Of a stretch of DNA of 64,000 nucleotides, positions 11,476 through 51,409 are shown piece after piece. Numbering within the stretch: position 1 is the stretch's first letter; each line of letters begins with the position of its first letter. A program made the position numbers and the translations under genes. The notes beneath the pieces were generated by a model, which worked only from the letters and a program-made list of their open reading frames with translations, was not told the DNA's origin and did not search any database. Source of the stretch: a virus; IMG/VR virus record IMGVR_UViG_3300027852_001277. One strand, 5' to 3'.

Positions 11476-12096
11476 ATGACAACAAATACAATAATAGCTG
11501 AAGATTTCGAGTCGTCATTTAAGGTAACTGGGACTTATATAGTAAGAAACGGAGTTTATGATGTTGAAGGCGACGTCCTTTTGATTAAGAAGGTGGAAAC
11601 TTTACCATTCAAGTTTGGTGTAGTTACTAGAAATTTTCGATGCAGTGACAACAACCTCGTATCTCTTGAAGGTGCCCCTGTTAAAGTAGGAGGAACTTTT
11701 GATTGTATGTTTAACAAGCTCGTCTCTCTTGAAGGTGCACCTAAAGAAGTAGGAGGAGGTTTTTGGTGCAGTGATAATAACCTAACTTCCCTTGAAGGTA
11801 CTCCTGTTAAAGTAGAAGGAGGTTTTGATTGTAGCTTTAATAAGCTTATCTCTGTTAAAGGTGCTCCCAAAGAAGTAGTAAGAACTTTTTGGTGTCACAA
11901 CAATGAGCTTGTATCTCTCAAAGGTGCACCTGTTAAAGTAGGAGGAAGTTTTGATTGTAGCTTTAATAAGCTCATCTCCCTTGAATATGCTCCTAAAGAA
12001 GTAGAAAGAGATTTTTGGTGTAATGATAATGTAAAATTGTTTATTAAGGAAGAAGTAGAAGCAGTATCTAATGTTGGGAGAAGCATTTATGTTTGA
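11476..12096 (+). CDS. LRR-solenoid protein #1 (6 x 21-aa units, N- and C-cap)
   Basis: 63-nt periodic units LxSLxGAPxxVGGxFxCxxNx; ATG at 11476 after AGGAGA. Confidence 0.9.
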   Translation: MTTNTIIAEDFESSFKVTGTYIVRNGVYDVEGDVLLIKKVETLPFKFGVVTRNFRCSDNNLVSLEGAPVKVGGTFDCMFNKLVSLEGAPKEVGGGFWCSDNNLTSLEGTPVKVEGGFDCSFNKLISVKGAPKEVVRTFWCHNNELVSLKGAPVKVGGSFDCSFNKLISLEYAPKEVERDFWCNDNVKLFIKEEVEAVSNVGRSIYV

Positions 12097-12143
12097 AGAC
12101 TAACTAGGAGAAGTTTAACGTCAGTAAAAAGGAGTCAAAGCTA

Positions 12144-12656
12144 ATGTTTAAAATTTTTGTTGATATGGATGGAGTGCTCACTGACTTTATGGGAGGTGTT
12201 CAAAAACTTTACAAGAAAAATCTGGATGTAAGAAAATTGATAGAGGAAGAAGAGGTCAAGCTTTGGGATGCTATTAATTCAGAGGGAATGGCATTCTGGT
12301 CCGGTCTTAGTTGGATGAGGGACGGAAAGAAGTTGTGGAATCACGTAAAAAAGTACAGACCAATCTTGTTGACAGCATTACCAGAAAAAAGTATATGTGA
12401 AAAAAGTGTGCATGTAGAAAAAGGTAAACTTGAATGGGTAAAAAGAGAACTTGGGGAAGTTGCTACTATTATGTGTAGGAGGGAAGAGAAGAAATGCTTT
12501 GCAGGTCCGTCTCATATTTTAATAGACGACGATTTTAGGAATATTAGAGAGTGGAAAGCGGAAAATGGTATAGCAATTTGGCATAACAATAGTAATACGA
12601 CCATTGTGGAACTGGAACTGGGGTTGATGGAACTAGAATTGAAGTTAATAAATTAA
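12144..12656 (+). CDS. 5'(3')-deoxyribonucleotidase, HAD family
   Basis: IFVDMDGVLTDF and LIDD motifs. Confidence 0.85.
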   Translation: MFKIFVDMDGVLTDFMGGVQKLYKKNLDVRKLIEEEEVKLWDAINSEGMAFWSGLSWMRDGKKLWNHVKKYRPILLTALPEKSICEKSVHVEKGKLEWVKRELGEVATIMCRREEKKCFAGPSHILIDDDFRNIREWKAENGIAIWHNNSNTTIVELELGLMELELKLIN

Positions 12657-12671
12657 AAATAAAGGAAAATT

Positions 12672-12830
12672 ATGAAAATTATAATCGCAAAATCAGATTT
12701 AGTTCCACTAAGGGAATTAATAGAGAAAGGGATGAGTTGTTACTCGCCAATTAATAGGGAGGAAACAAAAATGATAACTAAAGGTGCTAAGTTGCTTAAG
12801 AAAATTAATTGGTTTATAAGAAAAGGATAA
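12672..12830 (+). CDS. small protein, paralogue of 9811..10035
   Basis: MKIIIAKSDLVPLRELIEKGMSCYSPINREE. Confidence 0.55.
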   Translation: MKIIIAKSDLVPLRELIEKGMSCYSPINREETKMITKGAKLLKKINWFIRKG

Positions 12831-12854
12831 CAAATTAATAGGAGGTAATTGAAA

Positions 12855-13178
12855 ATGACGCCTAGAGAGAAATACCACAACGACAATCATTACTGTAAGT
12901 TGGTTGATATGATGGTTGCACATATAGAATCCTGTAATTACACACCATCAGAAATGAGAGAAGCGGCTATTTTAGCTTCCATTTTATATGAAGAACATCA
13001 TATGAGATCTTTTACTATAAATACTCCCTACCCTGTAGGTGTTATTTCTGCATTAAAAACTATTCATGAGTATGTTACAGATGAAACTTTAAGCAAGGAA
13101 AAGAATGTCGCCCAAAAGGAACTAAAATTTTCAGTTCAAAAGCTCGAAGAACCTTGTGTAGTAAAAGGGCGCGCCTAA
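12855..13178 (+). CDS. hypothetical protein
   Basis: ORF with GGAGG RBS; 3' end overlaps an LRR remnant. Confidence 0.6.
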   Translation: MTPREKYHNDNHYCKLVDMMVAHIESCNYTPSEMREAAILASILYEEHHMRSFTINTPYPVGVISALKTIHEYVTDETLSKEKNVAQKELKFSVQKLEEPCVVKGRA

Positions 13179-13299
13179 AGAAGTAGGATGGGATTTTTGG
13201 TGTGGTGGTAATCCAAAATCGTTTACTATAGAGGAAGTAAAAGCAGTATCTAGAGTTGGGAAAAATATTATACTTGAAATAGATAAATACAAAGTATGA
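13165..13299 (+). pseudogene. LRR remnant (partial unit plus C-cap, no start)
   Basis: KGAPKEVGWDFWCGGNPKSFTIEEVKAVSRVGKNII, immediately preceded in frame by TAA. Confidence 0.85.
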
Positions 13300-13334
13300 G
13301 TAAGTTTTATATAAATTAATAAAAGGAAAAGTGT

Positions 13335-14860: not shown

Positions 14861-15610
14861 ATGACAACAATAGAATGCAGTAATGAAAATGATTTTGAAA
14901 GTTGCTTTAAGATAAAAGGGACTTACACAGTAAGAGACGGAGTTTATGATGTTGATGGTAATATCCTTCTGATTAAGAAGGTGGAAACTTTACCGTTTAA
15001 ATTTGGTATAGTTACTGGGAATTTTCTGTGTAACGACAACAAGCTCCGTTCTCTTGAAGGCGTTCCTACTAAAGTAGGAGGAAATTTTGATTGTTGTAGA
15101 AATAACCTAACTTCTTTAGAAGGTGTTCCTGTTAAAGTAGGGAAAAATTTTTGGTGTAACGATAACAAGCTTACCACCCTGAAAGGCGCCCCTGAAGAAA
15201 TAGAAGGAATTTTTAATTGTAGGTTTAACAAACTTACCTCTCTCGAAGGTGCTCCTGTCAAAATAGGAGAAGATTTTTTATGTATGTTTAATAACCTTCA
15301 CTCCCTTGAAGGTGCTCCTAAAGAAGTAGGAACAGGTTTTTGGTGTTGCTGTAACAACCTCACCTCCCTCAAAGGTGCTCCCCTTAAAGTAGGTGGAGAT
15401 TTTGATTGTGGTGATAATGAACTTGCCTCCCTTGAAGGTGCTCCTGAAGAAATAGGAGGAACTTTTTGGTGCAATAGAAACAAGCTTCGATCTCTTAAAG
15501 GTGCGCCTAAAGAAGTAGGAGGAGATTTTTTGTGTAACAATAATGAAAAATTGTTTACTATAGAGGAAGTAAAAGCAGTATCCAAAGTTGGAAAAGGGTA
15601 TTTATGTTGA
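14861..15610 (+). CDS. LRR-solenoid protein #2 (8 units)
   Basis: Same N-cap, 21-aa units and C-cap. Confidence 0.9.
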   Translation: MTTIECSNENDFESCFKIKGTYTVRDGVYDVDGNILLIKKVETLPFKFGIVTGNFLCNDNKLRSLEGVPTKVGGNFDCCRNNLTSLEGVPVKVGKNFWCNDNKLTTLKGAPEEIEGIFNCRFNKLTSLEGAPVKIGEDFLCMFNNLHSLEGAPKEVGTGFWCCCNNLTSLKGAPLKVGGDFDCGDNELASLEGAPEEIGGTFWCNRNKLRSLKGAPKEVGGDFLCNNNEKLFTIEEVKAVSKVGKGYLC

Positions 15611-16448: not shown

Positions 16449-16694
16449 ATGATGAAAAAATATATTGTTTATCCTGGTTATGTTGTCTCTCGCAGAGACA
16501 GAGATAGTCACTATATCACATCGGAGCAATTGATGCGGTTACATGGTGTCAGTCCACGTGATTGCATCATTGTGCGAATAGAAGAAGATTACCGCAGATT
16601 AAAAGTGGTGGACACATCGAAAATGATCGCGCTGTATCCGAGAAGTGATGGTAACTATAAATCATATTTGGAGTGCGCACATTCTCCAAAATAA
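16449..16694 (+). CDS. hypothetical phage protein
   Basis: Last + strand gene before the strand switch. Confidence 0.6.
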   Translation: MMKKYIVYPGYVVSRRDRDSHYITSEQLMRLHGVSPRDCIIVRIEEDYRRLKVVDTSKMIALYPRSDGNYKSYLECAHSPK

Positions 16695-16768
16695 CTTTCG
16701 TGATGTTGCTAGTGCTAATCCCAGAATGAAGGCAGCACTAGCAACATCCAAAATACTTCGCGTTTCTT

Positions 16769-17215
16769 TTAATCTCCAACCTCTTCTTTTTCAGGAATGG
16801 GTTTTTCATTTACTCTCCGACTTTCAACCTCTTGTTCGGGAATTGGTTGTTCATGTACTTTCCAAAATGAAGACTGGTAGTCCCCCTCTCTAATAATCCT
16901 TTTAGGTGGTAGAGGTTGTAAGAGAGGAAGTAGCGGTGGAGGAAGCTGGTCGTTTTCTTTTTTACCATATTCCATAATGTTTTTCATCACTTCATCTTTT
17001 GCAGTATCTGAATCGTATTTCTCTAAGTGAGACTGGATAACATTAGCCATCGCTCTAACAATTTCCATATGTGGCAATACAGTATGAATGTGACCATCCT
17101 TAAATTGAATTGCTATCATTATATCAGCAGGCTCCCTTCGTACAACATCCGTATTACTTTTCAAAAGTGATGCTTCCTTTGTTATCATTTCTACAAGCTT
17201 CTGTATGTTTTCCAT
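16769..17215 (-). CDS. hypothetical protein (paralogue of 57534..57965)
   Basis: Shared PxDIMIxIQFxDGHxHxVLPH motif. Confidence 0.7.
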   Translation of the reverse strand: MENIQKLVEMITKEASLLKSNTDVVRREPADIMIAIQFKDGHIHTVLPHMEIVRAMANVIQSHLEKYDSDTAKDEVMKNIMEYGKKENDQLPPPLLPLLQPLPPKRIIREGDYQSSFWKVHEQPIPEQEVESRRVNEKPIPEKEEVGD

Positions 17216-17228: not shown

Positions 17229-17735
17229 CTATTTTAAAATTGAAATTATAAAACTAGGTATACTAACCTTCTCATAGATAATCCCGACTTCTTTAAAAAG
17301 CTTTTTATATTCAATGTCTTTATAGTCAATAGCATAGACAAACTTTGATATTTTTGAGCCAGCTACCATTTTGGCACAAATTACACAAGGAGTATGTGTG
17401 CAATAAATAGTAGCTCCCTTTATGCTGATTCCATGGAGAGACGCTTGTAGTATAGCATTCTCCTCACCGTGCAAGGCTCTACATATTTCGTGTCTCTCAC
17501 CAGAAGGTATATTAAGTTCATTTCTTAAACAACCAAGTTCGAGACAATCTTTCGTATCGGAAGGCGCGCCATTATAACCTGTAGTAAGTATTCTGTGATC
17601 CCTTACAGCTATCGCCCCAACATGATGGCGTTTACAAGTAGATCGTTCAGCTACAAGAAATGCTATCTTCATAAAATACTGATCCCAAGATAATCTAGTG
17701 TAACCTTTTGTGTTTCCTTCAGTTGTTAACTTCAT
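17229..17735 (-). CDS. dCMP deaminase (ComEB-like)
   Basis: WDQYFM, STC, TTGYNG, HGEEN, PCVIC; ATG at 17735 after GGAGGA. Confidence 0.9.
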   Translation of the reverse strand: MKLTTEGNTKGYTRLSWDQYFMKIAFLVAERSTCKRHHVGAIAVRDHRILTTGYNGAPSDTKDCLELGCLRNELNIPSGERHEICRALHGEENAILQASLHGISIKGATIYCTHTPCVICAKMVAGSKISKFVYAIDYKDIEYKKLFKEVGIIYEKVSIPSFIISILK

Positions 17736-18001
17736 AGTAATCCTCCAATAAGACAAATAACAAGGTAAATAGAAAGAATTATAACAACAGCCATTCCAAT
17801 GCTTGCCATAATATCTTCTGTTCTCCATTTAGCTTTAAATCAGGAACAGTCATTGTTTTTATTTATTGATTCTTTCCCTTCTTTGAAAAATTTACATTCA
17901 CTACAATAAACCTTTCTCTTTTTCTCAAAACCTTTCTCTACTAGCACATCTACATCTCTCTGGTATGGGTCAGGTATTACCATAATCGTTTCTCCCATAG
18001 T

Positions 18002-20142: not shown

Positions 20143-21087
20143 TCAACAACACGTTTTCAACAATCCGTTTTGTCCTCCTATCATCAACATAGATACTGCT
20201 CTTATTTCTTCTATAGTAAACAACATTACATTATTGTCACACCGAAAACCTCTTCCTACTTTTTTAGGTGCACCTTTTAAAGAAATAAGTTTGTTAAACC
20301 TACAACAAAAATCTTCTCCTACTTTGATAGGAGCGCCTTTGAGGGAAGTTAGTTCGTTATTGTTACAATTAAAATCACCTCCTACTTCTTTAGGTGACCC
20401 TTCGAGAGATACAAGCTTGTTAAAGCTACAATCAAAGCTTTCTCCCACTTCTTTAGGAGCGCCTTCGAGGGAACGGATATTGTTGTCATTACACAAAAAA
20501 GTTCCTCCTACTTTTGTAGGGGCGCCTTCAATGGAGTGAAGTTCGTTAAACATACAATTAAAATCTCCTCCTACTTTTGTAGGGGCATTATCGAGAGATG
20601 TGAGCTTGTTTCCACTACAATCAAAATCACCTCTTGTTTCTTTGGGTGCACCTTTAAGGGAACGGATATTGTTGTCGTTGCACCAGAAATTTCCTTTTGT
20701 TTCTTTAGGAGCGCCTTCGAGAGAAACAAGCTTGTTTCTGCTGCACCAAAAATCACCTTTTGTTTCTTTAGGTGCCCCTTTGAGAGAGACGAGCTTGTTG
20801 TCATTACACAAAAAAGTTCCTCCTACTTTTGTAGGGGCGCCTTCGAGGGAGGTGAGGTTATTTCTATTACAATAAAAACCTCCACCTACTTCTTTAGGAG
20901 CACCTTTTAAAGAGGTGAGGTTATTTTTGACACACCAAAAAGTTCCAGTAACTATACCAAACTTGAAGGGGAAAGACTCCACGTTTCTAAGTAGAATGAC
21001 GTCACCATTGACGTCATAAATGTTATTTTTTACTGAATAAATTCCTATTATCTTAAAGTACGATTTAAAATCTTCAGCTATTGTCAT
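20143..21087 (-). CDS. LRR-solenoid protein #3 (11 units; C-cap diverges after RAVS)
   Basis: N-cap and repeats; tail runs into a low-complexity tract. Confidence 0.9.
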   Translation of the reverse strand: MTIAEDFKSYFKIIGIYSVKNNIYDVNGDVILLRNVESFPFKFGIVTGTFWCVKNNLTSLKGAPKEVGGGFYCNRNNLTSLEGAPTKVGGTFLCNDNKLVSLKGAPKETKGDFWCSRNKLVSLEGAPKETKGNFWCNDNNIRSLKGAPKETRGDFDCSGNKLTSLDNAPTKVGGDFNCMFNELHSIEGAPTKVGGTFLCNDNNIRSLEGAPKEVGESFDCSFNKLVSLEGSPKEVGGDFNCNNNELTSLKGAPIKVGEDFCCRFNKLISLKGAPKKVGRGFRCDNNVMLFTIEEIRAVSMLMIGGQNGLLKTCC

Positions 21088-31328: not shown

Positions 31329-32243
31329 CTAACTTTTATTTTTTTCCTTCTCCAGAGTATCTTTTGCAATTTCCGTATCTCGCTTTACTTTAATAGGTGT
31401 ATCCTTAAGAGAAGTAAGTTTGTTATATTTACACCAAAAACTTCCCGCTACTTTTGTAAGAGTGCCTTTGATGAAGTGTAGATTGTCAAACCTACACCAA
31501 AAACTTTCTCCTACTTCTTTAGGAGCTCCTTCGAGGGAGTAAAGCTCGTTACTGCTGCACCAAAAATCTCCTCCTATTTCTTTAGGAGCGCCTTCAATGG
31601 AGTGGAGCTTGTTACCGTTACATTCAAAATTTCCTCCTACTTTAACAGGTGCACCTTCGAGAGAGGTGAGATCGTTATAGCTACACCAGAAATTTCCTCC
31701 TACTTCTTTAGGAGCTCCTTCGAGGGAGCAAAGCTCGTTACTGCTGCACCAAAAATCTCCTCCTACTTTTATAGGGGAACCCTTAAGAGAAGTAAGCTTA
31801 TTATAGCTGCACCAAAAACCTCCTACTATTTCTTTAGGTGCGTCTTTGAGAGAAACAAGCTTGTTGTTACTGCACCAAAAATCTCCTCCTACTTTTACAG
31901 GAGCACCTTTGAGAGAAGTAAGCTCGTTGTTACTATTACAATAAAAACTTCCTCCTACTTTAACAGGTGCATCCTTGAGAGAAGTAAGCTCGTTATCCCT
32001 ACAATCAAAATTTTCCCCTATTTTTGTAGGAGTGTTTTTTAGCGAAGTGAGTTTGTTTTTACTACAATCAAAACTTCCAGTAACTGTACCGAACTTAAAA
32101 GGGAGAGACTCCGTATTCCTAATAAGAAAGACGTTACCTTCTACATAATAAATGTTATCTTTTAATGTGTAAGTTCCATCTATCTGAAAGTATGATTCGA
32201 AATCATCTTCATTTTTACATTTTAGTTCATTAACTATTTGCAT
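31329..32243 (-). CDS. LRR-solenoid protein #4 (10 units plus partial, no canonical C-cap)
   Basis: N-cap and repeats. Confidence 0.9.
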   Translation of the reverse strand: MQIVNELKCKNEDDFESYFQIDGTYTLKDNIYYVEGNVFLIRNTESLPFKFGTVTGSFDCSKNKLTSLKNTPTKIGENFDCRDNELTSLKDAPVKVGGSFYCNSNNELTSLKGAPVKVGGDFWCSNNKLVSLKDAPKEIVGGFWCSYNKLTSLKGSPIKVGGDFWCSSNELCSLEGAPKEVGGNFWCSYNDLTSLEGAPVKVGGNFECNGNKLHSIEGAPKEIGGDFWCSSNELYSLEGAPKEVGESFWCRFDNLHFIKGTLTKVAGSFWCKYNKLTSLKDTPIKVKRDTEIAKDTLEKEKNKS

Positions 32244-32833: not shown

Positions 32834-33571
32834 CTACGCTATCTTATAGGAGCGTTTATTTTCTTGCTTCGTCAAGTTATTCCCATTACAATAAAAATTT
32901 CCCCCTACTTTAACAGGTGCACCTTCAAGAGAGGTGAGATTGTTATAGCTACACCAAAAATTTCCTCCTACTTCTTTAGGAGCACCTTTTAGGGAAACAA
33001 GGTTATTTCTATAACACCAAAAAGCTCTTCCTACTTTTATAGGAGCGCCTTCGAGGGAAGTAAGCTTATTAAACCTACAATCAAAACTTCCTCCTACTTC
33101 TTCAGGAGCGCCTTTCAGTGTGGTGATCTTGTTGTCGTCACACCAAAAACTTCCTCCTACTTCAACAGGTGAACCTTTAAGTGAGACGAGTTCATTTTCA
33201 CTACACCAAAAATGCCCCCCTACTTTTTTCGGAGCTCCTTCAAGAAAGGTAAGGCTATTTTCACTGCAATCAAAATCCCTTCCTACTTCTTTAGGAGCGC
33301 CCTCAAGGGAGATTAGGTTATTTTCACTGCAATCAAAATCTTTTCCTACTTTAACAGGTGCACCTTTAAGTGAGGTGAGCCTTTTGTTACTACAATCAAA
33401 ACTTCCAGTAACTGTACCGAACTTAAATGGGAAAGACTCTACTTTCCTGATGAGGAAGACGTTACCCTTAACATCATAAACTTCATCTCTTACTGAGTAA
33501 GTTCCCTCTACCTTGAAGTACGATTCGAAATCATCTTCGTTAGGCGTTATCTCCGGTTCATTTTCACGCAT
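32834..33571 (-). CDS. LRR-solenoid protein #5 (8 units, no canonical C-cap)
   Basis: N-cap and repeats. Confidence 0.9.
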   Translation of the reverse strand: MRENEPEITPNEDDFESYFKVEGTYSVRDEVYDVKGNVFLIRKVESFPFKFGTVTGSFDCSNKRLTSLKGAPVKVGKDFDCSENNLISLEGAPKEVGRDFDCSENSLTFLEGAPKKVGGHFWCSENELVSLKGSPVEVGGSFWCDDNKITTLKGAPEEVGGSFDCRFNKLTSLEGAPIKVGRAFWCYRNNLVSLKGAPKEVGGNFWCSYNNLTSLEGAPVKVGGNFYCNGNNLTKQENKRSYKIA

Positions 33572-33615: not shown

Positions 33616-34611
33616 TTATAAGTTTACCTTAAACTTTCGAGGAAATCTCTTTTTTACCTCTTCTATAGTAAACACTTTTTTATTACCAGTACAATCAAAA
33701 GTTCCCACTACTTCTTCAGGAGCACCTTCAAGGGAAGTTAGTTCGTTATAGCTACACCAAAAATTCCCCATTACTTCTTTAGGTGCATATTTTAGGGAAG
33801 TGAGCTTATTAAACCTACAATCAAAACTTCCTTCTATTTTAACAGGGGCGCCTTTCAGTGTTGTGAGCTTGTTGTCGTTACACCAAAAAGTTCCCCCTAC
33901 TTCTTCGGGAGCACCTTCAAGAGAGGTTAGTTCGTTTTCACTACACCAAAAAGTCCCACCTACTTTTTTAGTAGCGATTTCGAGCGAGATAAGGTTATTT
34001 CTGATACACCTAAAATCTCTTCCTACTTTAGCAGGTGCTCCTTTCAGAGAGGTGAGGTTATTTTCGCGACAATCAAAATCTCTTCCGACTTCTTCGGGAG
34101 CACCTTCAAGAGAAACAAGCTTATTTTCGTTACACCAAAAATCTTCTCCTACTTTTTCGGGAGCGCCTTCAAGGGAGATGAGGTTATTTTCGCTACAACC
34201 AAAATCTCTTCCTACTTCTTTAGGTGCGCCCTCAAGAGAGGTAAGGCTATTTTCACTGCAATCAAAATCTTTTCCTACTTTAGTAGGTGCTCCTTTCAGA
34301 GAGGTGAGGTTATTTTCGCGGCAATTAAAATCCCTTCCTACTTCCTTAGGGACGCCTATGAGGGATGTAAGGCTATTTTCACTGCAATCAAAATCTATTC
34401 CTACTTTAACAGGTGCGCCTTTAAGTGAGGTGAGCCCTTTGTTACTACAATCAAAAGTTCCCGTAACTATACCAAACTTAAAAGGGAGAGACTCCATATT
34501 CCTAAGAAGAAGGACGCCACCTTCTACATCATAAACGTTATCTTTTACTGTGTAAGTTCCCTCTATCTTGAAATACGATTCGAAAGTTCCTTGATTATTA
34601 ACTTCTTTCAT
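33616..34611 (-). CDS. LRR-solenoid protein #6 (12 units)
   Basis: N-cap, repeats, KVFTIEEV. Confidence 0.9.
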   Translation of the reverse strand: MKEVNNQGTFESYFKIEGTYTVKDNVYDVEGGVLLLRNMESLPFKFGIVTGTFDCSNKGLTSLKGAPVKVGIDFDCSENSLTSLIGVPKEVGRDFNCRENNLTSLKGAPTKVGKDFDCSENSLTSLEGAPKEVGRDFGCSENNLISLEGAPEKVGEDFWCNENKLVSLEGAPEEVGRDFDCRENNLTSLKGAPAKVGRDFRCIRNNLISLEIATKKVGGTFWCSENELTSLEGAPEEVGGTFWCNDNKLTTLKGAPVKIEGSFDCRFNKLTSLKYAPKEVMGNFWCSYNELTSLEGAPEEVVGTFDCTGNKKVFTIEEVKKRFPRKFKVNL

Positions 34612-34698: not shown

Positions 34699-35388
34699 CT
34701 AAACTTTCGAGGAAATCTCTTTTCTTACTTCTTCTATAGTAAACACTTTTTTATTACCAGTACAATTAAAAACTCCTCCTACTTCTTTAGGAGCGCCTTT
34801 AAGAGAGCGTAGCTTGTTTCTATTGCAATAAAAAGTTTCTCCTACTTTTACAGGCGCACCTTTGAGAGAGCGGAGCTTGTTATGGCTACAATCAAAATCT
34901 CCTCCTACTTCTGTAGGAGCGCCTTCGAGAGAGCGGAGCTTGTTATTTCTACTACACCAAAAAGTTTTTCCTATTTTTACAGGTGCACCTTTGAGAGAGC
35001 GGAGCTTGTTAAACCTACAATCAAAGCTTCCTTTCTCTTCTTTAGGAGCGCCTTTAAGAGAGATAAGTCTATTTTTGCTGCAATCAAAATCTCCTCCTAC
35101 TTTTACAGGTGCACCTTCAAGAGATGTAAGCTTGTTATCGTTACATAAAAAATCTCCTCCTACTTCTTTAGGAGCGCCTTCGAGAGAAGTAAGGCTATTC
35201 CCATCACACCGAAAATCCATAGTAACCGTACCAAATTTAAAGAGAAGGGTTTTAACCTTCTTCTTAAGAATGATGTCACCATCGACATCATAAACTCCGT
35301 CTCTTACTTTATAAGTTCCTTTTATTTCGAAATACTTTTCGAAATTATCTTCGGTAGGCAATGCCTTTAATTTACTTTTACATTCCAT
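34699..35388 (-). CDS. LRR-solenoid protein #7 (7 units)
   Basis: N-cap, repeats, KVFTIEEV. Confidence 0.9.
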   Translation of the reverse strand: MECKSKLKALPTEDNFEKYFEIKGTYKVRDGVYDVDGDIILKKKVKTLLFKFGTVTMDFRCDGNSLTSLEGAPKEVGGDFLCNDNKLTSLEGAPVKVGGDFDCSKNRLISLKGAPKEEKGSFDCRFNKLRSLKGAPVKIGKTFWCSRNNKLRSLEGAPTEVGGDFDCSHNKLRSLKGAPVKVGETFYCNRNKLRSLKGAPKEVGGVFNCTGNKKVFTIEEVRKEISSKV

Positions 35389-36981: not shown

Positions 36982-37432
36982 TCAAACATAAATACTTTTT
37001 TCAACTCTGGATACTGCTTCTACTTCCTCTATAGTAAACAACTTTTTATTATTGTTACACCAAAAATCTTCTCCTACTTTTTTAGGAGCACCTTCAAGAG
37101 ATGTGAGGTTATTGAACCTACAACCAAAGTTTCTTCCTACTTCTATAGGAGCGCCTTCTAGCGAGGTGAGCTCGTTACCATCGCACCCAAAATCTTCTCC
37201 TACTTCTTTAGGTGCCCATTTCAGAGAGGTGAGGTTATTTTTACTGCAATCAAAAGTTCCCGTAACTATACCAAACCTAAAAGGCAAAGTTTCCATTTTT
37301 AATTAGTGTTACATTACCATTGACGTCATAAACTTCGTCTCTTACTGTATAAGTTCCGTCTACTTCGAAGTAGAGTTTGAAATCATCTTCGGCTGTCTTT
37401 AGTTTACTAGGCTCATCTTTTTTGGTATTCAT
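36982..37432 (-). pseudogene. LRR-solenoid gene #8, frameshifted in the N-cap (3 units plus C-cap)
   Basis: ORFs 37277..37468 and 36982..37296 join at an A5 run (37296-37300). Confidence 0.85.
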
Positions 37433-39158: not shown

Positions 39159-40091
39159 CTACCATTTAACATAAATACTTTTTCCAACTTTAGATATTGC
39201 TCTTATTTCCTCTATAGTAAACAATGTTACATTGCCATTACATCGAAAACCTCCTCCTACTTCTTTAGGAGCACCTTTCAAAGATGTAAGCTTATTGAAC
39301 CTGCAATAAAAGTTTCCTCCTACTTTGATGGGGGCATATTCAAGAGAGATGAGCTTGTTATTATTGCAATCAAAATCTCTTCCTACTTTAATAGGAGCAC
39401 CTTTAAGAGAAGTGAGTTCGTTGTCCCTACACCAAAAATCCTCACTTACTTCAATAGGTGCGCATTCAAGAGAAATGAGCTTATTTCCACTACAATCAAA
39501 ATTTCCTTCTACTTTTTTAGGCGCGCCTTTCAGAGAAAGGAGCTTGTTATCACTACAATCAAAATCTTCTCCTACTTCTACAGAAGCACCTTTGAGAGAG
39601 TGGAGCTTGTTGTTACTACAGTCAAAAGTTACTCCTACTTCTTTAGGAGCACCTTCTAGAGAGGTAAGTTCGTTTCTGCTACACCAAAAACTCCCACCTA
39701 CTTTTGTAGGAGCACCTTCTAAAGAGGTGAGCTTATTATAACCACACCAAAAATTTCCTCCTACTTCTTTAGGTGCGCCTTTGAGAGAAACAAGCTTGTT
39801 GTCGTTACACCAAAGAAATCCTCCTACTTTAACAGGAGCTCCTATGAGAGATGTGAGCTTGTTTTTGCTACACCAAAAATTTCCTCCTACTTCTTCCGGA
39901 GCGCCTTCAAGAGAGGTAAGTTTATTTTCGGAGCACCAAAAATTCCCAGTAACTACACCAAACCTAAATGGTAAAGTTTCCACTTTCTTAAGTAGAGTTA
40001 TGTCGCCATTTATGTTATAAATTTTATTTTTTACTATGTAAGTTCCGTTTATCCGGAAGTACGATTCGAAACCATCTTCAGCTGTTGTCAT
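39159..40091 (-). CDS. LRR-solenoid protein #9 (11 units)
   Basis: N-cap, repeats, C-cap. Confidence 0.9.
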   Translation of the reverse strand: MTTAEDGFESYFRINGTYIVKNKIYNINGDITLLKKVETLPFRFGVVTGNFWCSENKLTSLEGAPEEVGGNFWCSKNKLTSLIGAPVKVGGFLWCNDNKLVSLKGAPKEVGGNFWCGYNKLTSLEGAPTKVGGSFWCSRNELTSLEGAPKEVGVTFDCSNNKLHSLKGASVEVGEDFDCSDNKLLSLKGAPKKVEGNFDCSGNKLISLECAPIEVSEDFWCRDNELTSLKGAPIKVGRDFDCNNNKLISLEYAPIKVGGNFYCRFNKLTSLKGAPKEVGGGFRCNGNVTLFTIEEIRAISKVGKSIYVKW

Positions 40092-40153
40092 TATACTATC
40101 TCCTATCTTCTGGTATAAATATTTTTTCCAACTCTGGTTACTGCTTCCACTTC

Positions 40154-40708
40154 CTATTTAGTAAACAATTTAATATTATCACCGCAATCAAAATCTCTTC
40201 CTACTTTTTTAGGTGCACCTTTAAGAGTGACGAGTTTGTTTCCACTACACCAAAAACCTCTTCCTACTTCTTTGGGTGCACCTTTAAGTGAAGTGAGGTT
40301 GTTATTGTGACACCAAAAATCACCTTTTATTCTAGTGGGGGACCCTTTAAGAGATATAAGCTTGTTGTTACTACATTCAAAAGCTCTTCCTACTTTAGTA
40401 GGTGCACCTTCGAGAGAGGTAAGTTTGTTGTTACCACAATAAAAAGCTCCTTCTACTTTAATAGGTGCACCTTTCAAGGTAGTGAGCTTGTTGTTACAGC
40501 AATAAAAACCTCCTCCTACTTCTTTAGGTGCGCCTTTAAGAGAAGTAAGCTCCATGCTACCGCAATTAAAAGCTCCTGTAATTACACTAAACCTAAATGG
40601 TAAGGTTCCGACTTTCTTAATCAATATTACATCACCATCGACGTAATACATTTTATTTTTTATCTCATAAGTTCCGTATATTTTAAAATATTCTTCTAAT
40701 TCTATCAT
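40154..40708 (-). CDS. LRR-solenoid protein #10 (6 units; amber stop inside the C-cap)
   Basis: TAG at 40154-40156 followed in frame by EVEAVTRVGKNIYTRR to 40103. Confidence 0.85.
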   Translation of the reverse strand: MIELEEYFKIYGTYEIKNKMYYVDGDVILIKKVGTLPFRFSVITGAFNCGSMELTSLKGAPKEVGGGFYCCNNKLTTLKGAPIKVEGAFYCGNNKLTSLEGAPTKVGRAFECSNNKLISLKGSPTRIKGDFWCHNNNLTSLKGAPKEVGRGFWCSGNKLVTLKGAPKKVGRDFDCGDNIKLFTK

Positions 40709-44199: not shown

Positions 44200-45135
44200 T
44201 TAGCCTTTTAAAGCTTTTTCGAATATAGCCTTAGGAACAGTAGATGTATCAGGTTGAGTCACAACATAACGAGAGCATTCGTTGGCAATCTTTGCTGCTT
44301 CGCTAAGATTCATTCCCATTCCGATACAAATTGCAATTACCGACGTGACTGTATCCCCAGCACCACTAACATTATAAACTTCCACAGGGGATTGAGGGAT
44401 ATAATAAATTTCTTCGAGATTTTCTCCGTGATAGATCTGCATTCCATCCTTCCCTAAAGTTTTTACAATATAGTTCGCGTAATTCGGATAAGGTTGAGCA
44501 GACTCGAGTTCTTTGCTGTTTGGTGTTACTATAAGAGTATTCTTGTAACGAACCCGAGAATACAAAGAAAAGTGTTCAGGTGCGGGGTCTATAATAATAG
44601 GCACGTTCATGTTGCTAATAATGGTCATCAATTGTTCCGACACGACTCCTTTTGCGTAATCAGATACCACTATTATATCTATAGATTCGTATTTCAACTT
44701 AGTACACTCTTCGCAAAGTGCATTAGTAGTATTGACGGGTACATACTTTAACTCTTTATCTATTCTTATCATTTGCATTAATCTATACTCGGCCACTATC
44801 CTCGTCTTTTGTGTTGTAACGATTTCTTTTGATTGTATGATATGGCTATCAGCAAGTATTTTTTCTTGGTTATCAACAAGTATTTTATTCAGTTTTTGGA
44901 TTATAGAAAGGCCAGCTTCATCTTCCCCCACTATACCTAAATATATTACATTGGGACCAAGCTCTCGGATATTACTAACTACATTCCCTGCTCCACCTAA
45001 TTTAGAATACTCTCTGTTTGCTAGAAGTATCGGAACAGGGGCTTCTGGGGAAATCCGTTCAACGCTGCCTACTATATATTTATCAAGCATTATATCGCCA
45101 ACTACTAGAATATTCACATCTTTAATATTTTTCAT
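44200..45135 (-). CDS. rfaE1: D-glycero-beta-D-manno-heptose 7-phosphate kinase (RfaE/HldE domain I, PfkB family)
   Basis: VVGDIMLDKY, RISPEAPVP, GGAGNV, SDYAKG, TPNSKE, SGAGDT. Confidence 0.9.
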   Translation of the reverse strand: MKNIKDVNILVVGDIMLDKYIVGSVERISPEAPVPILLANREYSKLGGAGNVVSNIRELGPNVIYLGIVGEDEAGLSIIQKLNKILVDNQEKILADSHIIQSKEIVTTQKTRIVAEYRLMQMIRIDKELKYVPVNTTNALCEECTKLKYESIDIIVVSDYAKGVVSEQLMTIISNMNVPIIIDPAPEHFSLYSRVRYKNTLIVTPNSKELESAQPYPNYANYIVKTLGKDGMQIYHGENLEEIYYIPQSPVEVYNVSGAGDTVTSVIAICIGMGMNLSEAAKIANECSRYVVTQPDTSTVPKAIFEKALKG

Positions 45136-46196: not shown

Positions 46197-46814
46197 TTAA
46201 TATAAGTTTGTAGTCAAACAGTCTTCAATGAAGTATATAATGCGCTCCATTGACTCTCTAATAGTACCATTATTATCGATTGTAGCAACACTTCCTCCGT
46301 GTTCCTTGAAACGTTCGAGTGCTAGTTGATAATTTTGTTTAATTATATCTAATTTGTGAATCACGTGTGTCAACTCAAAAGGATTCTTATCTCTATTCTT
46401 TACTCTTTCTAAACTATTGTCCGAATTTGTTATAATGTAGAGTACGAGAGGCTTTAGTGCTATAAATCTTAAAAAATGTTTATCCCTGTATATATTCAGT
46501 TCTCTTTGCGGACGATAAGCGTAATCACTCAAGATAGATCTATCACTAACCACCCATTTGTTCTTCTTTAATGCAGGTTCTACAACTTTATTAAGATGTT
46601 CTTCTCTATCTGCTGAAAAAAGTAGCGTATATGTTGTAGGAGAGAGATCAGGAGTATTGAGAATCACTTTTCTGATTCCCATACAAAAGTCCAACCCAGG
46701 TGTGCCTGGCTCTTTAGTAAACACTTTATTCTCAGGTAGAATATCAAACAACTTTTTTGCTAAGAACGTCTTTCCTGACCAATCTGCACCTTCAATCACA
46801 ATGTATTTATACAT
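46197..46814 (-). CDS. tmk: thymidylate kinase
   Basis: IEGADWSGKT, KEPG, LFSADR, SDRS. Confidence 0.85.
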   Translation of the reverse strand: MYKYIVIEGADWSGKTFLAKKLFDILPENKVFTKEPGTPGLDFCMGIRKVILNTPDLSPTTYTLLFSADREEHLNKVVEPALKKNKWVVSDRSILSDYAYRPQRELNIYRDKHFLRFIALKPLVLYIITNSDNSLERVKNRDKNPFELTHVIHKLDIIKQNYQLALERFKEHGGSVATIDNNGTIRESMERIIYFIEDCLTTNLY

Positions 46815-47725: not shown

Positions 47726-48421
47726 TTATCTATGATGACTTCGCTGCTCAATTTCTTCCAATGTCCTTTCTATAGCATCAATCTGATATTTGGCTTTTGT
47801 AATAGGACGCCCTATGACAAGATAAGTTGATCCAAACCCAATTGCCTCAGCTGGCGTAGCAGTTCTCTTTTGATCGTCGCCAGCGTCTTGAAACCATCTG
47901 GGACGAATCCCAGGTGTGACTTTAATAAGGTTTTTAAAATTCTTATATAGGCTTAACTCTTGAGCAGAACATACAATCCCATACACAGCAGCCCGAGAAG
48001 CATCCTGTACAAATTCCAGAACTTTTGTACTAACAGACGTATGAAAAATGTTGTTTGCATCGTGGTCACTAAGAGATGTTAGAACAGTTACAGCCAAGAT
48101 TTTACTTTCCCCTGCTACAGCTATTGCTCTGGTCATCATTTCTATACCTCCTGAAGCATGAACTGTTATCAGGTCTGGCTTTGCTCTGACAATTTTTTTA
48201 ATTCGATTTTCCACAGTTTGCGGAATATCGTGAAATTTACAGTCGGCAAAGACTTTTCCATATTTCTTCAATTCTTTAATTATGGCAATACTTCCTACAT
48301 CCGCATCTAGGAGGTCGTTGACTTTAAAACCCCAGACTTTCCCGGATAGTTTTTCTGCCATTTCAAAAGCTTCCGTCCTCTCCATCCCATCTAAAGCAAT
48401 TATGATCGGATTTTTTTCCAT
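47726..48421 (-). CDS. pyrF: orotidine 5'-phosphate decarboxylase
   Basis: IIALD, DCKFHDIP, TVHASGG, AVTVLTS, TPGIRP, QKR, VIGRPIT. Confidence 0.92.
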   Translation of the reverse strand: MEKNPIIIALDGMERTEAFEMAEKLSGKVWGFKVNDLLDADVGSIAIIKELKKYGKVFADCKFHDIPQTVENRIKKIVRAKPDLITVHASGGIEMMTRAIAVAGESKILAVTVLTSLSDHDANNIFHTSVSTKVLEFVQDASRAAVYGIVCSAQELSLYKNFKNLIKVTPGIRPRWFQDAGDDQKRTATPAEAIGFGSTYLVIGRPITKAKYQIDAIERTLEEIEQRSHHR

Positions 48422-48803: not shown

Positions 48804-48817
48804 TTTACAACAATCGT

Positions 48818-49690
48818 TTAACCCGTAATTAAAATCTCTCCTGCTCTAACATAGGAACCATTTAGAAAAGTGAGCTTGTTTTTACCACACCAAAAACCTC
48901 TTCCTACTTTTATAGGAGCGCCTTCGAATGAGATGAGGTTGTTATTGTCGCACCAAAAATCTCCTCCTACTTCTTTAGGCGCACCTTCGAGGGAGACGAG
49001 CTTGTTGTTAATACAACCAAAATTACCTTTTACTTTAACAGGAGCACCTTTGAGGAAGTGGAGCTTGTTATAACCACACCAAAAACTTCCTCCTACTTCT
49101 TTAGGAGCGCCTTTGAGGGAGGTTAGTTCATTGTCACCGCACCCAAAATCTCCTCTTACTTCTTTAGGAGCACCTTCAAGGGAAGTTAGTTTATTATCGT
49201 TACAATCAAAATCTCCCCCTACTTTTGTAGGAGCGTCTTTAAGGGAATGGAGATTATTACCATCACACCAAAAGCCTCTTCCTACTTCTTCGGGAGCGCC
49301 TTTGAGAGATACAAGCTTGTTTCTAGTACAATCAAAACCACCTTCTACTTTTACAGGTGCACCTTCAAGAGAAGTGAGGTTGTTTTCGCTACACCAAAAA
49401 TCTCCTCCTACTTTCATAGGAGCACCTTTGAGAGAGGTGAGTTTATTTTCCCCACACCAAAAATCTCCCACTACTTCTTCCGGAGCGCCTTTAAGAGAGG
49501 TAAGGTTATTTTCACTGCAATTAAAATTTCCAGTGACTACACCAAACTTGAACGGCAGAGACTCTACTTTCCTAAGAAGAAGGACGTCGCCTTTGACGTC
49601 GTAAACTTTATCTCTTATTGTGTAAGTCCCTTTTACTTCGAAGTACGATTCGAAGTTATCTTCGATAGGCGCTACTTCATTTTTATACAT
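48818..49690 (-). CDS. LRR-solenoid protein #11 (10 units plus partial)
   Basis: N-cap and repeats; sits between pyrF and pyrD. Confidence 0.9.
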   Translation of the reverse strand: MYKNEVAPIEDNFESYFEVKGTYTIRDKVYDVKGDVLLLRKVESLPFKFGVVTGNFNCSENNLTSLKGAPEEVVGDFWCGENKLTSLKGAPMKVGGDFWCSENNLTSLEGAPVKVEGGFDCTRNKLVSLKGAPEEVGRGFWCDGNNLHSLKDAPTKVGGDFDCNDNKLTSLEGAPKEVRGDFGCGDNELTSLKGAPKEVGGSFWCGYNKLHFLKGAPVKVKGNFGCINNKLVSLEGAPKEVGGDFWCDNNNLISFEGAPIKVGRGFWCGKNKLTFLNGSYVRAGEILITG

Positions 49691-49809
49691 TCTATACCTC
49701 CTAATAATTAGTTGCGTTAACTAAATATTGCTATTCCAACTCTGGATACAGTTTTTACTATTACATTTTGTAGTTATCTCATCTTTATCCCCGATTTACA
49801 AGCTTAAAA

Positions 49810-50523
49810 TTAGTCGTCTGTTTCCCTTTCGAGGTAAAAAAGATCCTTCTCTACTAATTTTGGGTTTATTAACATTACAGTACCAATTTGAAATCTTACG
49901 ACCCCTATATCCATCAATCTTTTCATATCCTGAAAGGAAATCCAAGATGCTCCTGCGACAGGCAACCCTTCTTTTATGAATTTACCAATGAATGTCCAAT
50001 TATCATGTTGTGCTAGCTTACCAGAAATTCCACCTTTCCATTTTGGTATGCTATTAACTGAAATCCCTTCTATTTTATTAAGATCGTATCTGTATGGGTC
50101 TTGCGTATGATTCAATTTAAGATAAAGCTTATGGTTCGATTTAGGAATCTTTTTATTTTTGTAATCTTCAACATTAGGACAAGAGAAATTAAGCTCGATT
50201 CCTTTTACTTTATAGTATTCTAATGTAGCTACCATAGTTTCTATCTCGTAGTCACTCCCAGCAATTGAAATGATTATGTTATCTGGTTGAATAACTTTAT
50301 AATATTTTTTGAGCCATTTAGTTAGCCCAATATTGTGAAGGCCCAAATGATTCCAAATAGAATTTCCTAAAGGAACGATAGCGTATGGATAGCCTATATT
50401 CTCAAAGGCAGTCAGGGTTCTAGTTACGATAGGAAATTTAGGAAACTTGAATAGTTTGTGCCACCACCAGCCTTTCCCGTACTTCATTGCTCCCGATGTA
50501 TAATAGAATTTTTCTTCCGCGAT
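49810..50523 (-). CDS. pyrD: dihydroorotate dehydrogenase-like protein (class 1, compact)
   Basis: NHLGLHNIG, ISIAG, IELNFSCPNV, GGISG, QIGT; in-frame extension to ATC at 50523 after AGGAGG restores TSGAMKYG. Confidence 0.7.
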   Translation of the reverse strand: MAEEKFYYTSGAMKYGKGWWWHKLFKFPKFPIVTRTLTAFENIGYPYAIVPLGNSIWNHLGLHNIGLTKWLKKYYKVIQPDNIIISIAGSDYEIETMVATLEYYKVKGIELNFSCPNVEDYKNKKIPKSNHKLYLKLNHTQDPYRYDLNKIEGISVNSIPKWKGGISGKLAQHDNWTFIGKFIKEGLPVAGASWISFQDMKRLMDIGVVRFQIGTVMLINPKLVEKDLFYLERETDD

Positions 50524-50582
50524 GACGTCCTCCTTTCTAGGCTTCGCTCTTCATGTTAATATTCTCATCAAGCCAAGTAGCA

Positions 50583-51065
50583 TCACTCCACGCAAATATT
50601 ACATGTCCACAGTCTATGTATCCTGAGAATCCGATTTAGATGATATCTTGACACATTTACTACATCTCCATGATTACCACCAAGCAAATACACGTATTCA
50701 GCATTCCTGCCAGCATAGAATCCGACATGTCCTGGTGCATCGGTGATATCCTGTCCTGGTGGACTCTTCCCTCCGATTTGTCTGTTTAGGATTACTACGT
50801 CAAACCCTACCTTTGCATCAGTGTAGTGGTGTAGTGGCTCTCCAACCTGCAACCAAGATCTCGCCATCAAACTCTTAGATCTCGGAAGCCTAAGCAACCA
50901 ACAAATGTAATTCACAAATGATGAGCACCACGGTACTTCGTCATGCATAGGCCACTGAGCATCCCGTGTTGACAGGGCAAGAATCTGCGGACTTTCTACC
51001 AATCCCTTAACTCCCTTCATTCCCACGAATCGTTGGGCTAAATCAAATGGTGTTATCTTTATCAT
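50583..51065 (-). CDS. TIGR02594-like (NlpC/P60/CHAP-like) protein
   Basis: DEVPWCSSFV, ARSW, GHVGFY, LLGGN. Confidence 0.8.
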   Translation of the reverse strand: MIKITPFDLAQRFVGMKGVKGLVESPQILALSTRDAQWPMHDEVPWCSSFVNYICWLLRLPRSKSLMARSWLQVGEPLHHYTDAKVGFDVVILNRQIGGKSPPGQDITDAPGHVGFYAGRNAEYVYLLGGNHGDVVNVSRYHLNRILRIHRLWTCNICVE

Positions 51066-51181
51066 ATGTTATCACCTCCTTTCCTACTTCTCGATTCTTT
51101 ATCTTCTCAAAATTACCACTAATTCCTACCTCCTGAGCTATTAATATAACATCGTTTTATATCCTAGATAAATATTTAAAA

Positions 51182-51409
51182 TTAGTCGTCTGTCTCTCTT
51201 TTGGGGTAAATACCTTTTCCAACTATAGATACTGCTTCTACTTCTTCTACAGTAAATACTTTTATATTATTATTACACCAAAAACCTCCTTTCACTTCTT
51301 TAGGTGCGCCTTTGAGTGAAGTTAGCTCATTGTAGTCGCACAAAAAACCTCTTTCTACTTTTTTAGGCGCGCCTTCTATGGAGATGAGCTCGTTATTACT
51401 ACAATCCAA
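51182..51409 (-). pseudogene. LRR remnant (2 units plus C-cap, N-cap lost)
   Basis: No RBS or N-cap; 3' end shares sequence with the pyrD 3' end (RETDD). Confidence 0.8.

Follow-up and report, generated by a model that had tools for sequence, protein, structure and literature searches.

Eleven paralogous LRR genes and decayed remnants are spread, on both strands, over positions 11476–51409 of the window, that is, the whole 64,000-nt stretch analyzed here, whose source is a large uncultured marine tailed phage. In an ORF check all eleven ORFs matched the earlier note in coordinates and strand, and remnants were recovered as well, three in number as stated there. A six-frame scan of the window with an HMM of the repeat unit yielded, outside the eleven genes, comparable matches in the remnants only.

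11476..12096, + strand: LRR paralogue 1; 206 aa, N-cap, 6 full units and a terminal unit, full C-cap
13165..13296, + strand: remnant; 1 unit and C-cap, without start codon and N-cap
14861..15610, + strand: LRR paralogue 2; 249 aa, 8 units, full C-cap
20143..21087, – strand: LRR paralogue 3; 314 aa, 11 units, C-cap helix, tail diverged; the protein modelled
31329..32243, – strand: LRR paralogue 4; 304 aa, about 10–11 units, without canonical C-cap
32834..33571, – strand: LRR paralogue 5; 245 aa, 8 units, without canonical C-cap
33616..34611, – strand: LRR paralogue 6; 331 aa, 12 units, C-cap helix present
34699..35388, – strand: LRR paralogue 7; 229 aa, 7 units, C-cap helix present
36982..37432, – strand: LRR paralogue 8, frameshifted; N-cap, 3 units, full C-cap
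39159..40091, – strand: LRR paralogue 9; 310 aa, 11 units, full C-cap; the search query
40103..40708, – strand: LRR paralogue 10; 6 units, C-cap interrupted by TAG
48818..49690, – strand: LRR paralogue 11; 290 aa, 10 units, without canonical C-cap
about 49717..49752, – strand: remnant, a short piece of C-cap located upstream of paralogue 11; positions are approximate
51185..51418, – strand: remnant; 3 units and C-cap in a stop-bounded frame, without start codon

When the proteins are cut at F-x-C, the repeat unit is FxCxxNxLxSLxGAPxxVGGx, and its length is strictly 21 aa, as had been claimed, apart from two 22-aa exceptions. The previous count of ~95 units holds approximately: the F-x-C cutting gives 90 clean internal units across the eleven genes, and the unit HMM, with terminal units counted in, gives 101. 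The fit of the clean units to the pattern F1-x-C3-x-x-N6-x-L8 is close (F in 89/90, C in 90/90, N in 86/90, L in 87/90), and this pattern corresponds to the canonical L4-x-L6-x-x-N9-x-L11, with Gly at canonical L1 and Val one residue upstream. The proteins range from about 200 to 330 aa in size, consist of the LRR and caps only, and have isoelectric points from 4.9 to 9.4.

The N-cap, previously described as common to each paralogue, is found in ten of the eleven genes, while in paralogue 8 (36982) it is encoded in another frame. There, the N-cap and the units are separated by a +1 frameshift within an A-run close to 37300: the N-cap ORF, with its ATG at about 37432, stops after the A-run, and the units and C-cap resume from 37296. 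The statement that most genes end in a shared C-cap proved generous, since only four of the eleven genes have it in full (FTIEEVxAVSxVGKxIY); three have a partial or frameshifted version, in the gene at 40154 it is cut by a TAG, and three lack it. The TAG of this gene (paralogue 10) occupies 40154–40156 inside the C-cap, and the remaining cap is in frame downstream, at about 40103–40153. The tail of paralogue 6 uses a reading frame other than that of the tail of paralogue 7. In total, nine of the eleven ORFs are intact, one gene has a frameshift and one a premature stop; together with the several remnants, these demonstrate birth-and-death decay in the LRR family of the window. As several copies are decaying, not all of them need to have a function.

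Between the LRR genes lie genes of nucleotide metabolism and other accessory genes, and Shine-Dalgarno motifs are observed upstream of the LRR start codons. No structural, head or protease genes have been identified among the window ORFs scanned, and no structural-type Pfam family among the genes called in the 24.9-kb ENA contig containing the ligase. Among the neighbours scanned no anti-defence genes were recognised, and PADLOC yielded no match for the LRR proteins.

The AlphaFold (AF2) model of paralogue 3 is an LRR solenoid (mean pLDDT 91.4, pTM 0.87) in which every unit regularly contributes two short strands, and the top Foldseek matches to it in PDB are all LRR proteins (SDS22, YopM, LRRTM2, InlJ, IpaH, SspH1), with TM up to 0.58. 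An ESM Atlas model of a member of the LRR family has pLDDT of 0.91. The LRR-solenoid structure had been set beforehand as a check, and the LRR fold is borne out by both the AF2 model and the Foldseek matches. As modelled, the proteins are capped LRR solenoids, curved, with a concave parallel beta-sheet.

By sequence, the closest solved structure is InlJ (PDB 3bz5; E 8e-15 over 241 aligned residues), and in the HMMER alignment to 3bz5 the Cys columns are in register. In NCBIfam, too, InlJ is the best match, its model NF033187 giving E down to 3e-22, the scores being 50–79 bits vs. the curated cutoff of 1700. In Listeria monocytogenes InlJ, as in the phage proteins, the unit has 21 residues with Cys at canonical position 6 of each unit, and both retain the canonical N9 and L11. 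The previously proposed assignment to the YopM/IpaH type does not agree with these data: the match to IpaH7.8 is weak (E 0.004, compared to 8e-15 for InlJ), and the unit has 21 residues with SLxGAP and lacks LPxLP. Judged by sequence, the repeat class is the InlJ-type 21-residue cysteine-ladder LRR. Still, InlJ is an adhesin that is secreted and attached to the surface by an LPXTG anchor, and it carries an internalin cap, an IR domain and MucBP repeats, whereas in the phage proteins both signal peptide and anchor are absent and the caps are different; the phage unit also differs from that of InlJ in the substitution at canonical L1, with the shifted Val, and in the variable segment, SLxGAP. 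The LRRs of YopM, IpaH, SspH and SlrP resemble the phage ones in being short bacterial LRRs, with a good match in fold and a weak one in sequence, and the SspH2 model matches one relative at E 7e-13. The LRRs of these T3SS effectors act as protein-binding modules inside another cell; however, the effectors have 20- or 22-residue units with LPxLP, secretion signals and often the NEL ubiquitin-ligase domain, all absent here.

The claim that the proteins have no signal peptide or catalytic domain agrees with the hydropathy and Pfam scans. No signal peptide or membrane segment was detected, the maximum Kyte-Doolittle value being 1.28 over 10 N-terminal residues and 1.37 over 19 residues overall, and the Pfam scan found no domain at the gathering score in any paralogue. 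LRR_4 of Pfam scores 11 bits vs. the 27-bit cutoff, the LRRNT matches are 11–12-residue fragments within the repeats, and some relatives carry precomputed PF12799 matches. From the hydropathy scan, the proteins are predicted to be cytoplasmic.

The variation among units is concentrated at few positions. Entropy is 2.3–3.1 bits at unit positions 2, 4, 5 and 21, corresponding to canonical LRR positions 5, 7, 8 and 3, and the scaffold residues F1, C3, N6, L8, S10, L11, G13, A14, P15 and V18 are nearly invariant (seven of these ten positions have entropy below 0.4 bits, and the other three do not exceed 0.83). Variability is hence located at canonical positions 3, 5, 7 and 8, that is, at the concave face, and, with 3–12 units per gene, the family is variable in both length and surface, as had been suggested.

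The paralogues are about 70% identical in nucleotides, with third-codon-position identity of 0.59, and the mean identity of units, 69%, is equal within and between genes. Retention of the conserved scaffold at this level of divergence indicates selection for maintenance. Shuffling of cassettes or gene conversion among the window genes was considered and rejected, as the longest exact tract common to two paralogues is 41 nt; shared runs of 30 nt are about as frequent as expected from 70% identity over a conserved scaffold. The repertoire is an old and inherited one and is not being reshuffled. The analogy with VLRs of jawless vertebrates, drawn in the earlier note, is therefore a loose one. It holds for capped LRR arrays of variable length with diversity at the concave face, but VLRs arise by somatic assembly of cassettes and their LRRNT and LRRCT caps are disulfide-bonded, whereas the phage genes are germline, ~70% identical, have unrelated caps and contain no near-identical cassette-like tracts.

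According to the earlier note, other phages have single genes of this kind, and an expansion on such a scale looked undescribed. This is contradicted by IMG/VR: large-phage contigs there have 13–32 family matches each, five contigs have 8–32 each, and 12–14 LRR ORFs are found inside stretches of 13–21 kb; the expansion is real, yet not special to this genome. When clustered at 50% identity (E ≤ 1e-10), the family comprises about 11,000 clusters (about 11,300), the majority labelled viral, and in ESM Atlas the nearest clusters are 98–100% Uroviricota. Profile matches (E down to 5e-18) were obtained with PHROG families 7816 and 21719, both of unknown function. The large-phage contigs from IMG/VR have the same N-cap and unit as the window genes, and some of their lineages have other constant C-terminal domains. 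Many relatives have an extra N-terminal peptide and C-terminal domains of roughly 100 aa, while the window genes have neither. Among cultured phages, Vibrio phage VB_VaC_SRILMA has a single homologue, at positions 3330–3965 of its record. No publication on this LRR family was found in the literature search, the viral-LRR survey of Matsushima et al. (2021, Arch Virol 166:43) being outside the scope.

Bacteria also encode members of the family. Capless homologues are chromosomal genes in Chlorobiaceae and other MAGs, and homologues with the same unit and C-cap motif, lacking signal peptides, are found in Chlorobiaceae, Victivallales, Lentisphaerota, Ignavibacteria and gut Alphaproteobacteria. 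As the homologues without the N-cap in Chlorobium and Victivallales reside in housekeeping chromosomal contexts, the family is not intrinsically a phage weapon. The plasmid search yielded only distant InlJ-like LRRs.

Megablast of 8 kb of the window against isolate phages produced no match, the DNA ligase of the window is at most 27% identical to that of any isolate, and in the flanks of 70 related loci the LRR genes are the sole content shared with the window. As no close relative was found, comparisons of orthologues were drawn from other phages and metagenome assemblies, the latter being error-prone in repeats. In one pair of related phages (L010 and L015), an LRR fusion protein has a 290-aa N-terminal domain that hardly differs between the two, while positions 2, 4, 5, 7, 16 and 21 of its LRR array differ in 7–10 of 12 units; nine of the ten scaffold positions differ in none of the 12 units, and A14 differs in two. 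The arrays of this pair also differ by two whole units, and omega in the LRR comparison is 0.44 vs. 0.04–0.26 in neighbouring genes. A 63-nt unit indel and divergence limited to the LRR array are observed in related phages. On the other hand, the arrays of near-identical pairs are almost fixed: seven of eight LRR genes are identical between L031 and L051, and where two phages are 99.3% identical, differences are concentrated only about 2-fold in the LRR gene. L003 and L006 share 7.4 kb that is identical over seven LRR genes, all 147 differences being located at one mosaic boundary, which may reflect recombination or assembly chimerism. The possibility raised earlier, that related phages carry fixed orthologous arrays, hence applies to near-identical pairs of these other phages, while elsewhere among them the arrays vary. 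The window sequence is listed in one DNA sequencing run, a marine metagenome that is probably its source, and in no RNA run; the contigs of the former are fragmented unitigs with repeat-induced joints and yielded no usable information on the population.

We propose that the window encodes a birth-and-death family of capped LRR solenoids serving as cytoplasmic binders of putative host targets. Each protein consists, as modelled, of an N-terminal helix and beta-hairpin cap, 3–12 cysteine-ladder units and a short C-terminal capping helix. As the concave-face residues differ between units and paralogues on a nearly constant scaffold, each paralogue would have a distinct binding surface. The proteins would be made inside the infected cell, and each paralogue would bind a separate macromolecular target, most likely a host protein, in takeover or counter-defence. 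The structural and evolutionary part of this explanation is very probably correct. Intracellular binding of host proteins is plausible, at slightly below an even chance; a specifically anti-defence role is putative and rather doubtful; the explanation as a whole has, in our opinion, equal chances of being right and wrong.

Several features of the family could be read in other ways. The LRR proteins might enter the capsid, as T4 internal proteins do, and be injected with the DNA, and would then meet host defences ahead of phage gene expression. Many relatives indeed begin with a conserved MKxLKxFE-like peptide preceding the N-cap, and I-A-E is present near the N-terminus in two window genes, resembling the motif at which the T4 prohead protease cleaves. 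However, T4-type internal proteins have a conserved N-terminal targeting peptide ending in L/I-x-E, whereas the eleven window genes lack both the MKxLKxFE-like peptide and any conserved N-terminus before the N-cap: their N-termini are short and differ in sequence as well as in length, and conservation begins with the modelled N-cap helix. We consider packaging improbable; neither a prohead protease nor a head gene is present among the scanned window ORFs. Given the bacterial homologues with the same unit and C-cap motif and no signal peptides, the phage proteins might also be mimics or decoys of a family member in the host cytoplasm, competing for its partner instead of binding many separate targets. 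In a mimic one would expect the binding face to be conserved, while here the concave face is the most variable part, and eleven diverged copies are at odds with a single target; this reading is less probable than packaging.

Association with the virion surface or fibres, where the proteins would be adhesins serving as host-recognition modules, has parallels in the LRR or beta-helix domains that chimalliviruses carry on putative host-recognition fibres (bioRxiv 10.64898/2026.04.21.720040) and in a vibriophage tail-module protein annotated as LRR-like (PMC10945359), and InlJ is itself an adhesin. The window proteins, however, are small and lack a fibre-anchoring or trimerisation domain, their genes are scattered among nucleotide-metabolism genes instead of being in a structural module, and eleven diverged copies with isoelectric points from 4.9 to 9.4 would be unusual for receptor-binding proteins, so that such a role is more improbable still. 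Finally, the expansion could be largely neutral, as repeat genes duplicate easily in large, loosely packed genomes, with most copies decaying. The frameshifted gene, the premature stop, the three copies without the C-cap, at least three remnants and some tails in alternative frames are consistent with that. On the contrary, nine of the eleven ORFs are intact despite ~30% nucleotide divergence and near-saturated third positions, the scaffold residues are strictly conserved, and comparable repertoires are kept in many unrelated large phages; we regard largely neutral expansion as the least probable of these possibilities.

Returning to the cytoplasmic binders, one could generalize that large phages of many lineages keep heritable, slowly diversifying repertoires of LRR binders against host proteins, e.g., defence systems, which would change by gain and loss of units and by concave-face substitutions. 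We offer this tentatively, as it is more likely to be wrong than right by a wide measure. If true, such repertoires would be the phage-side counterpart of the LRR sensors of cellular immunity, the eleven genes of the window constituting one repertoire. LRR solenoids are a standard evolvable recognition scaffold in cellular immunity and bacterial effectors, and their use by phages is almost unstudied; the present family, with thousands of mostly viral-labelled clusters and, repeatedly, 10–30 copies in large phages, has neither a Pfam model nor a named function. Were its members to bind host proteins, they would constitute a large and so far unused supply of natural inhibitors or adaptors and provide insight into the spare coding capacity of big phage genomes. 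The window is one good example, not a unique case.

In giant eukaryotic viruses, according to two studies, large families of capped-solenoid repeats scale with the viral genome size (PMC9525666, PMC5753266). The FNIP/IP22 LRRs of CroV and mimiviruses, and the ankyrin families, resemble the phage family in being large paralogous sets of solenoid binders. The FNIP/IP22 LRRs have a 22-residue FGxxFN repeat, belong to other viruses and hosts, and have no detectable sequence relationship to the phage family.

Scanning for regulatory signals yielded 25 sigma-70-like promoter sites vs. 32 expected, and 19 terminator-like sites vs. 6.8 expected, the latter excess being caused by a palindrome in the sequence coding for APKEVGG.

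The ORF check of the window reproduced all eleven LRR genes proposed in the earlier note, with the same coordinates (starts at 11476, 14861, 20143, 31329, 32834, 33616, 34699, 36982, 39159, 40154, and 48818). When the proteins were cut at F-x-C, the proposed unit length of 21 residues was observed throughout, bar two 22-residue exceptions. The 90 clean internal units obtained in this way were used to train a unit HMM, which identifies 101 units in the eleven genes, terminal ones included, and in the six-frame translation of the window finds only remnants outside these genes. The remnants in the window are:

13165-13296, plus strand, LRR gene remnant
51185-51418, minus strand, LRR gene remnant
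about 49717-49752, minus strand, LRR gene remnant

The shared caps are less uniform than had been described. The N-terminal module of approximately 50 residues (N-cap) is present in ten of the eleven genes, while in the gene at 36982 it lies in another frame because an A-run near 37300 has changed by one base. The C-terminal motif FTIEEVxAVSxVGKxIY (C-cap) is complete in just four genes: three retain its helix alone, and their tails are in different reading frames; in the gene at 40154 it is interrupted by TAG, the remaining cap still being in frame downstream, and three genes lack it. At their 3' ends (33616-33680 and 34699-34760, minus strand), paralogues 6 and 7 have nearly the same nucleotides in different frames, yielding the tails KKRFPRKFKVNL and RKEISSKV, respectively, and hence the extreme C-terminal tail is drifting via A-run indels. 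As noted earlier for signal peptides, none of the eleven proteins has a hydrophobic N-terminus; no membrane segments were found in them either, and their pI ranges from 4.9 to 9.4.

A Pfam scan of the LRR proteins gave no match above gathering scores, and the PHROG families matched, 7816 and 21719, are both of unknown function. Among named families and structures, Listeria InlJ is matched best, with E-values down to 3e-22 for the NCBIfam InlJ model and 8e-15 for PDB 3bz5 (InlJ; 241 residues, cysteine columns in register), compared to only 0.004 for IpaH7.8, so that the initial assignment to the YopM/IpaH class is not retained. InlJ is the prototype of 21-residue LRRs with Cys in place of a core hydrophobic residue (“cysteine ladder”), and the title of the 3bz5 record likewise indicates a cysteine-ladder LRR. 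The AlphaFold2 model of a 314-residue paralogue (mean pLDDT 91.4, pTM 0.87) opens at the N-terminus with a helix and a beta-hairpin cap, each unit then contributes two short strands, and after the C-terminal capping helix the chain ends in a disordered tail; the leading Foldseek matches in PDB are all LRR proteins. An independent ESM Atlas model of another window paralogue has pLDDT 0.91. The InlJ matches, together with the AlphaFold2 and Foldseek results, indicate that the window proteins are, as predicted from sequence and models, capped LRR solenoids of the InlJ-like class. Identity with internalins was rejected, as the scores fall well short of the family cutoff and the window LRR proteins lack all accessory features of internalins.

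Across the 90 units, F1, C3, N6, L8, S10, L11, G13, A14, P15, and V18 are near-invariant, while the entropy reaches 2.3-3.1 bits at positions 2 (mostly Trp or Asp), 4, 5, and 21, and about 2 bits at positions 7, 9, and 16. Positions 21, 2, 4, and 5 are equivalent to positions 3, 5, 7, and 8 of the canonical LRR, which face outward from the concave sheet and contact ligands in LRR proteins. The mean nucleotide identity between units is 69%, the same within and between genes (59% at third codon positions); whole paralogues are 69-72% identical, and the longest exact tract common to two of them is 41 nt. This level of divergence points to an old repertoire with the scaffold under purifying selection. 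Recent amplification or homogenisation was rejected on the same grounds, and the identity and exact-tract comparison gave no evidence of cassette shuffling among the window paralogues.

Comparison of related phages, all of them represented by metagenome assemblies, where repeats are fragile, gives a mixed picture. Fixed arrays, which the earlier note held to be at odds with a variable repertoire, are observed for most genes of L031 and L051, loci of essentially one phage: six of eight LRR genes are identical and the seventh is 99.8% identical. In the remaining gene, the difference is a single 63-nt unit that has been perfectly duplicated in tandem. In the L010/L015 pair (approximately 90% identical), the N-terminal 290 residues of the PcfJ-like-LRR protein are nearly identical, while the array differs in length by two whole units, and substitutions at positions 2, 4, 5, 7, 16, and 21 affect 7-10 of 12 units; the scaffold is unchanged at nine of its ten positions, and A14 differs in two of 12 units. 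Omega is 0.44, compared to 0.04-0.26 in the neighbours. Such a pattern could have arisen through diversifying selection or because a paralogous array replaced the original one. In L035/L038 (99.3% identical), the enrichment is modest, the LRR gene containing 12% of differences in 6.6% of the length. On balance, these sequence comparisons lean against array fixity.

The LRR family is widespread. A word-indexed search was saturated, with at least 7,849 matches (7,849 of 8,000 scored candidates), and exhaustive searching across 1.84 billion representatives matched 22,407 clusters (E<=1e-3), of which 11,294 remain at the E<=1e-10 threshold and 1,837 at E<=1e-30. The IMG/VR search retrieved 68 loci, mostly on contigs of 80-413 kb, where the unit HMM counted as many as 14 LRR ORFs over 21 kb, and 12 over 12.9 kb. 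Whole-record searches of nine contigs of 184-413 kb gave 32, 29, 19, 19, 13, 10, 8, 6, and 2 matches; thus, contrary to the earlier proposal, the scale of the expansion is not unusual, and the window is one representative example. In the uncultured 735-kb phages LR756501 and LR756503, the family matches at 19 places; Vibrio phage isolates SRILMA and TDDLMA have one clear copy, and Lak phages have distant copies. Flanks of all these loci have nothing in common with the window beyond LRR genes, and therefore the family appears repeatedly among large phages that are unrelated. Giant eukaryotic viruses are likewise known to have large families of repeat proteins (PMC9525666, PMC5753266). The LRR fold and the repeat class are already known. 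The searched literature appears to contain no description of the capped phage-type subfamily or of its repeated expansion in large phages.

A search of GTDB genomes retrieved 76 loci, in many Chlorobiaceae, uncultured gut and rumen Alphaproteobacteria, Victivallales, Lentisphaerota, Ignavibacteria, Paludibacteraceae, and others. Among these and related contigs are:

L124:5956-7062, Chlorobium MAG homologue with 14 units, single-copy and chromosomal, on a 921-kb contig
L080:1-13083, 13 tandem LRR genes in a ‘Candidatus Muiribacterium’ MAG
L077:5041-6120, L099:4981-6080, L135:5245-6300, and L010:9071-9950, PcfJ-like-LRR fusions

The Chlorobium gene lies between pstA/pstB-phoU and CHAD-ppk, and one or two such chromosomal genes are present in many Chlorobiaceae MAGs. 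The Victivallales copy is located on a 3.08-Mb chromosome between glucanotransferase and ATP-grasp genes, and further downstream lies the gene for arginyl-tRNA synthetase. The number of units in these chromosomal homologues is 11-21; they have neither a signal peptide nor the beta-hairpin N-cap, and they do have a motif, FTEEEVRxxCxVxGKV, homologous to the window C-cap. The tandem genes of L080 combine the phage-type N-cap with a C-terminal domain that is conserved and roughly 100 aa long; MAG contigs with 10-13 tandem copies (L080 and the Paludibacteraceae locus L079, with ten) possibly represent phage DNA assigned to bacterial MAGs by mis-binning. Fusions in which a PcfJ-like domain (PF14284), a domain found in conjugative elements, precedes an array of the LRR unit described here occur in several MAG and phage contigs, and in one ESM Atlas cluster PcfJ membership is 89%.

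The phage origin of the window is indicated by gene content, gene density, PHROG matches, and viral labels of the nearest relatives. No head or tail structural family was matched among the scanned ORFs, the sole tail-category match being a lysozyme-like domain. LRR genes occupy both arms of a strand switch at ~16500-17200, where GC skew changes sign along with transcription direction. Nucleotide-metabolism genes are dense in the window, and genes interleaved with LRR genes also encode a DHH phosphoesterase, Amidase_3, a DUF551 protein, and an ATP-dependent DNA ligase:

5736-6449, thymidylate-synthase-like gene
12144-12656, NT5C nucleotidase gene
17229-17828, dCMP deaminase gene
46197-46814, thymidylate kinase gene
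47726-48421, OMP decarboxylase gene
44200-45135, PfkB kinase gene, interleaved with LRR genes
38356-38862, cytidylyltransferase gene, interleaved with LRR genes
29659-31320, minus strand, 553-aa protein with an N-terminal GHKL (HATPase_c_3) ATPase domain

The latter gene is directly downstream of LRR paralogue 4, its product weakly matching TmtA in PADLOC (E 4e-5). The window has one tRNA gene, tRNA-Lys, and its DNA is present in only one public sequencing run, a marine metagenome.

The conserved scaffold, the variable concave face, the lack of an export signal, and the accessory-gene setting suggest that the window LRR proteins would be intracellular binding proteins with different targets. 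Host proteins would be the most plausible targets, with counter-defence as one attractive subset. Capsid targeting is suggested by relatives (P0005, P0006, P0027, L031:8773-9020, and L080), in which the N-cap is preceded by a conserved MKxLKxFE-like peptide, resembling the T4 capsid-targeting sequence; however, the peptide is absent from the window LRR genes, and so this role is ranked lower for this phage than binding of host proteins.

The sequence coding for A-P-K-E-V-G-G inside LRR units is a palindrome (CTCCTAAAGAAGTAGGAG), often followed by a T-run and containing the Shine-Dalgarno-like string AGGAGG; AGGAG-type ribosome-binding sites are observed upstream of start codons. Examples of the palindrome are:

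31508-31525, minus strand, APKEVGG palindrome
32965-32982, minus strand, APKEVGG palindrome
34776-34793, minus strand, APKEVGG palindrome
35157-35174, minus strand, APKEVGG palindrome

The excess of terminator-like structures in the window (19 vs. 6.8 expected) is due to this coding palindrome.
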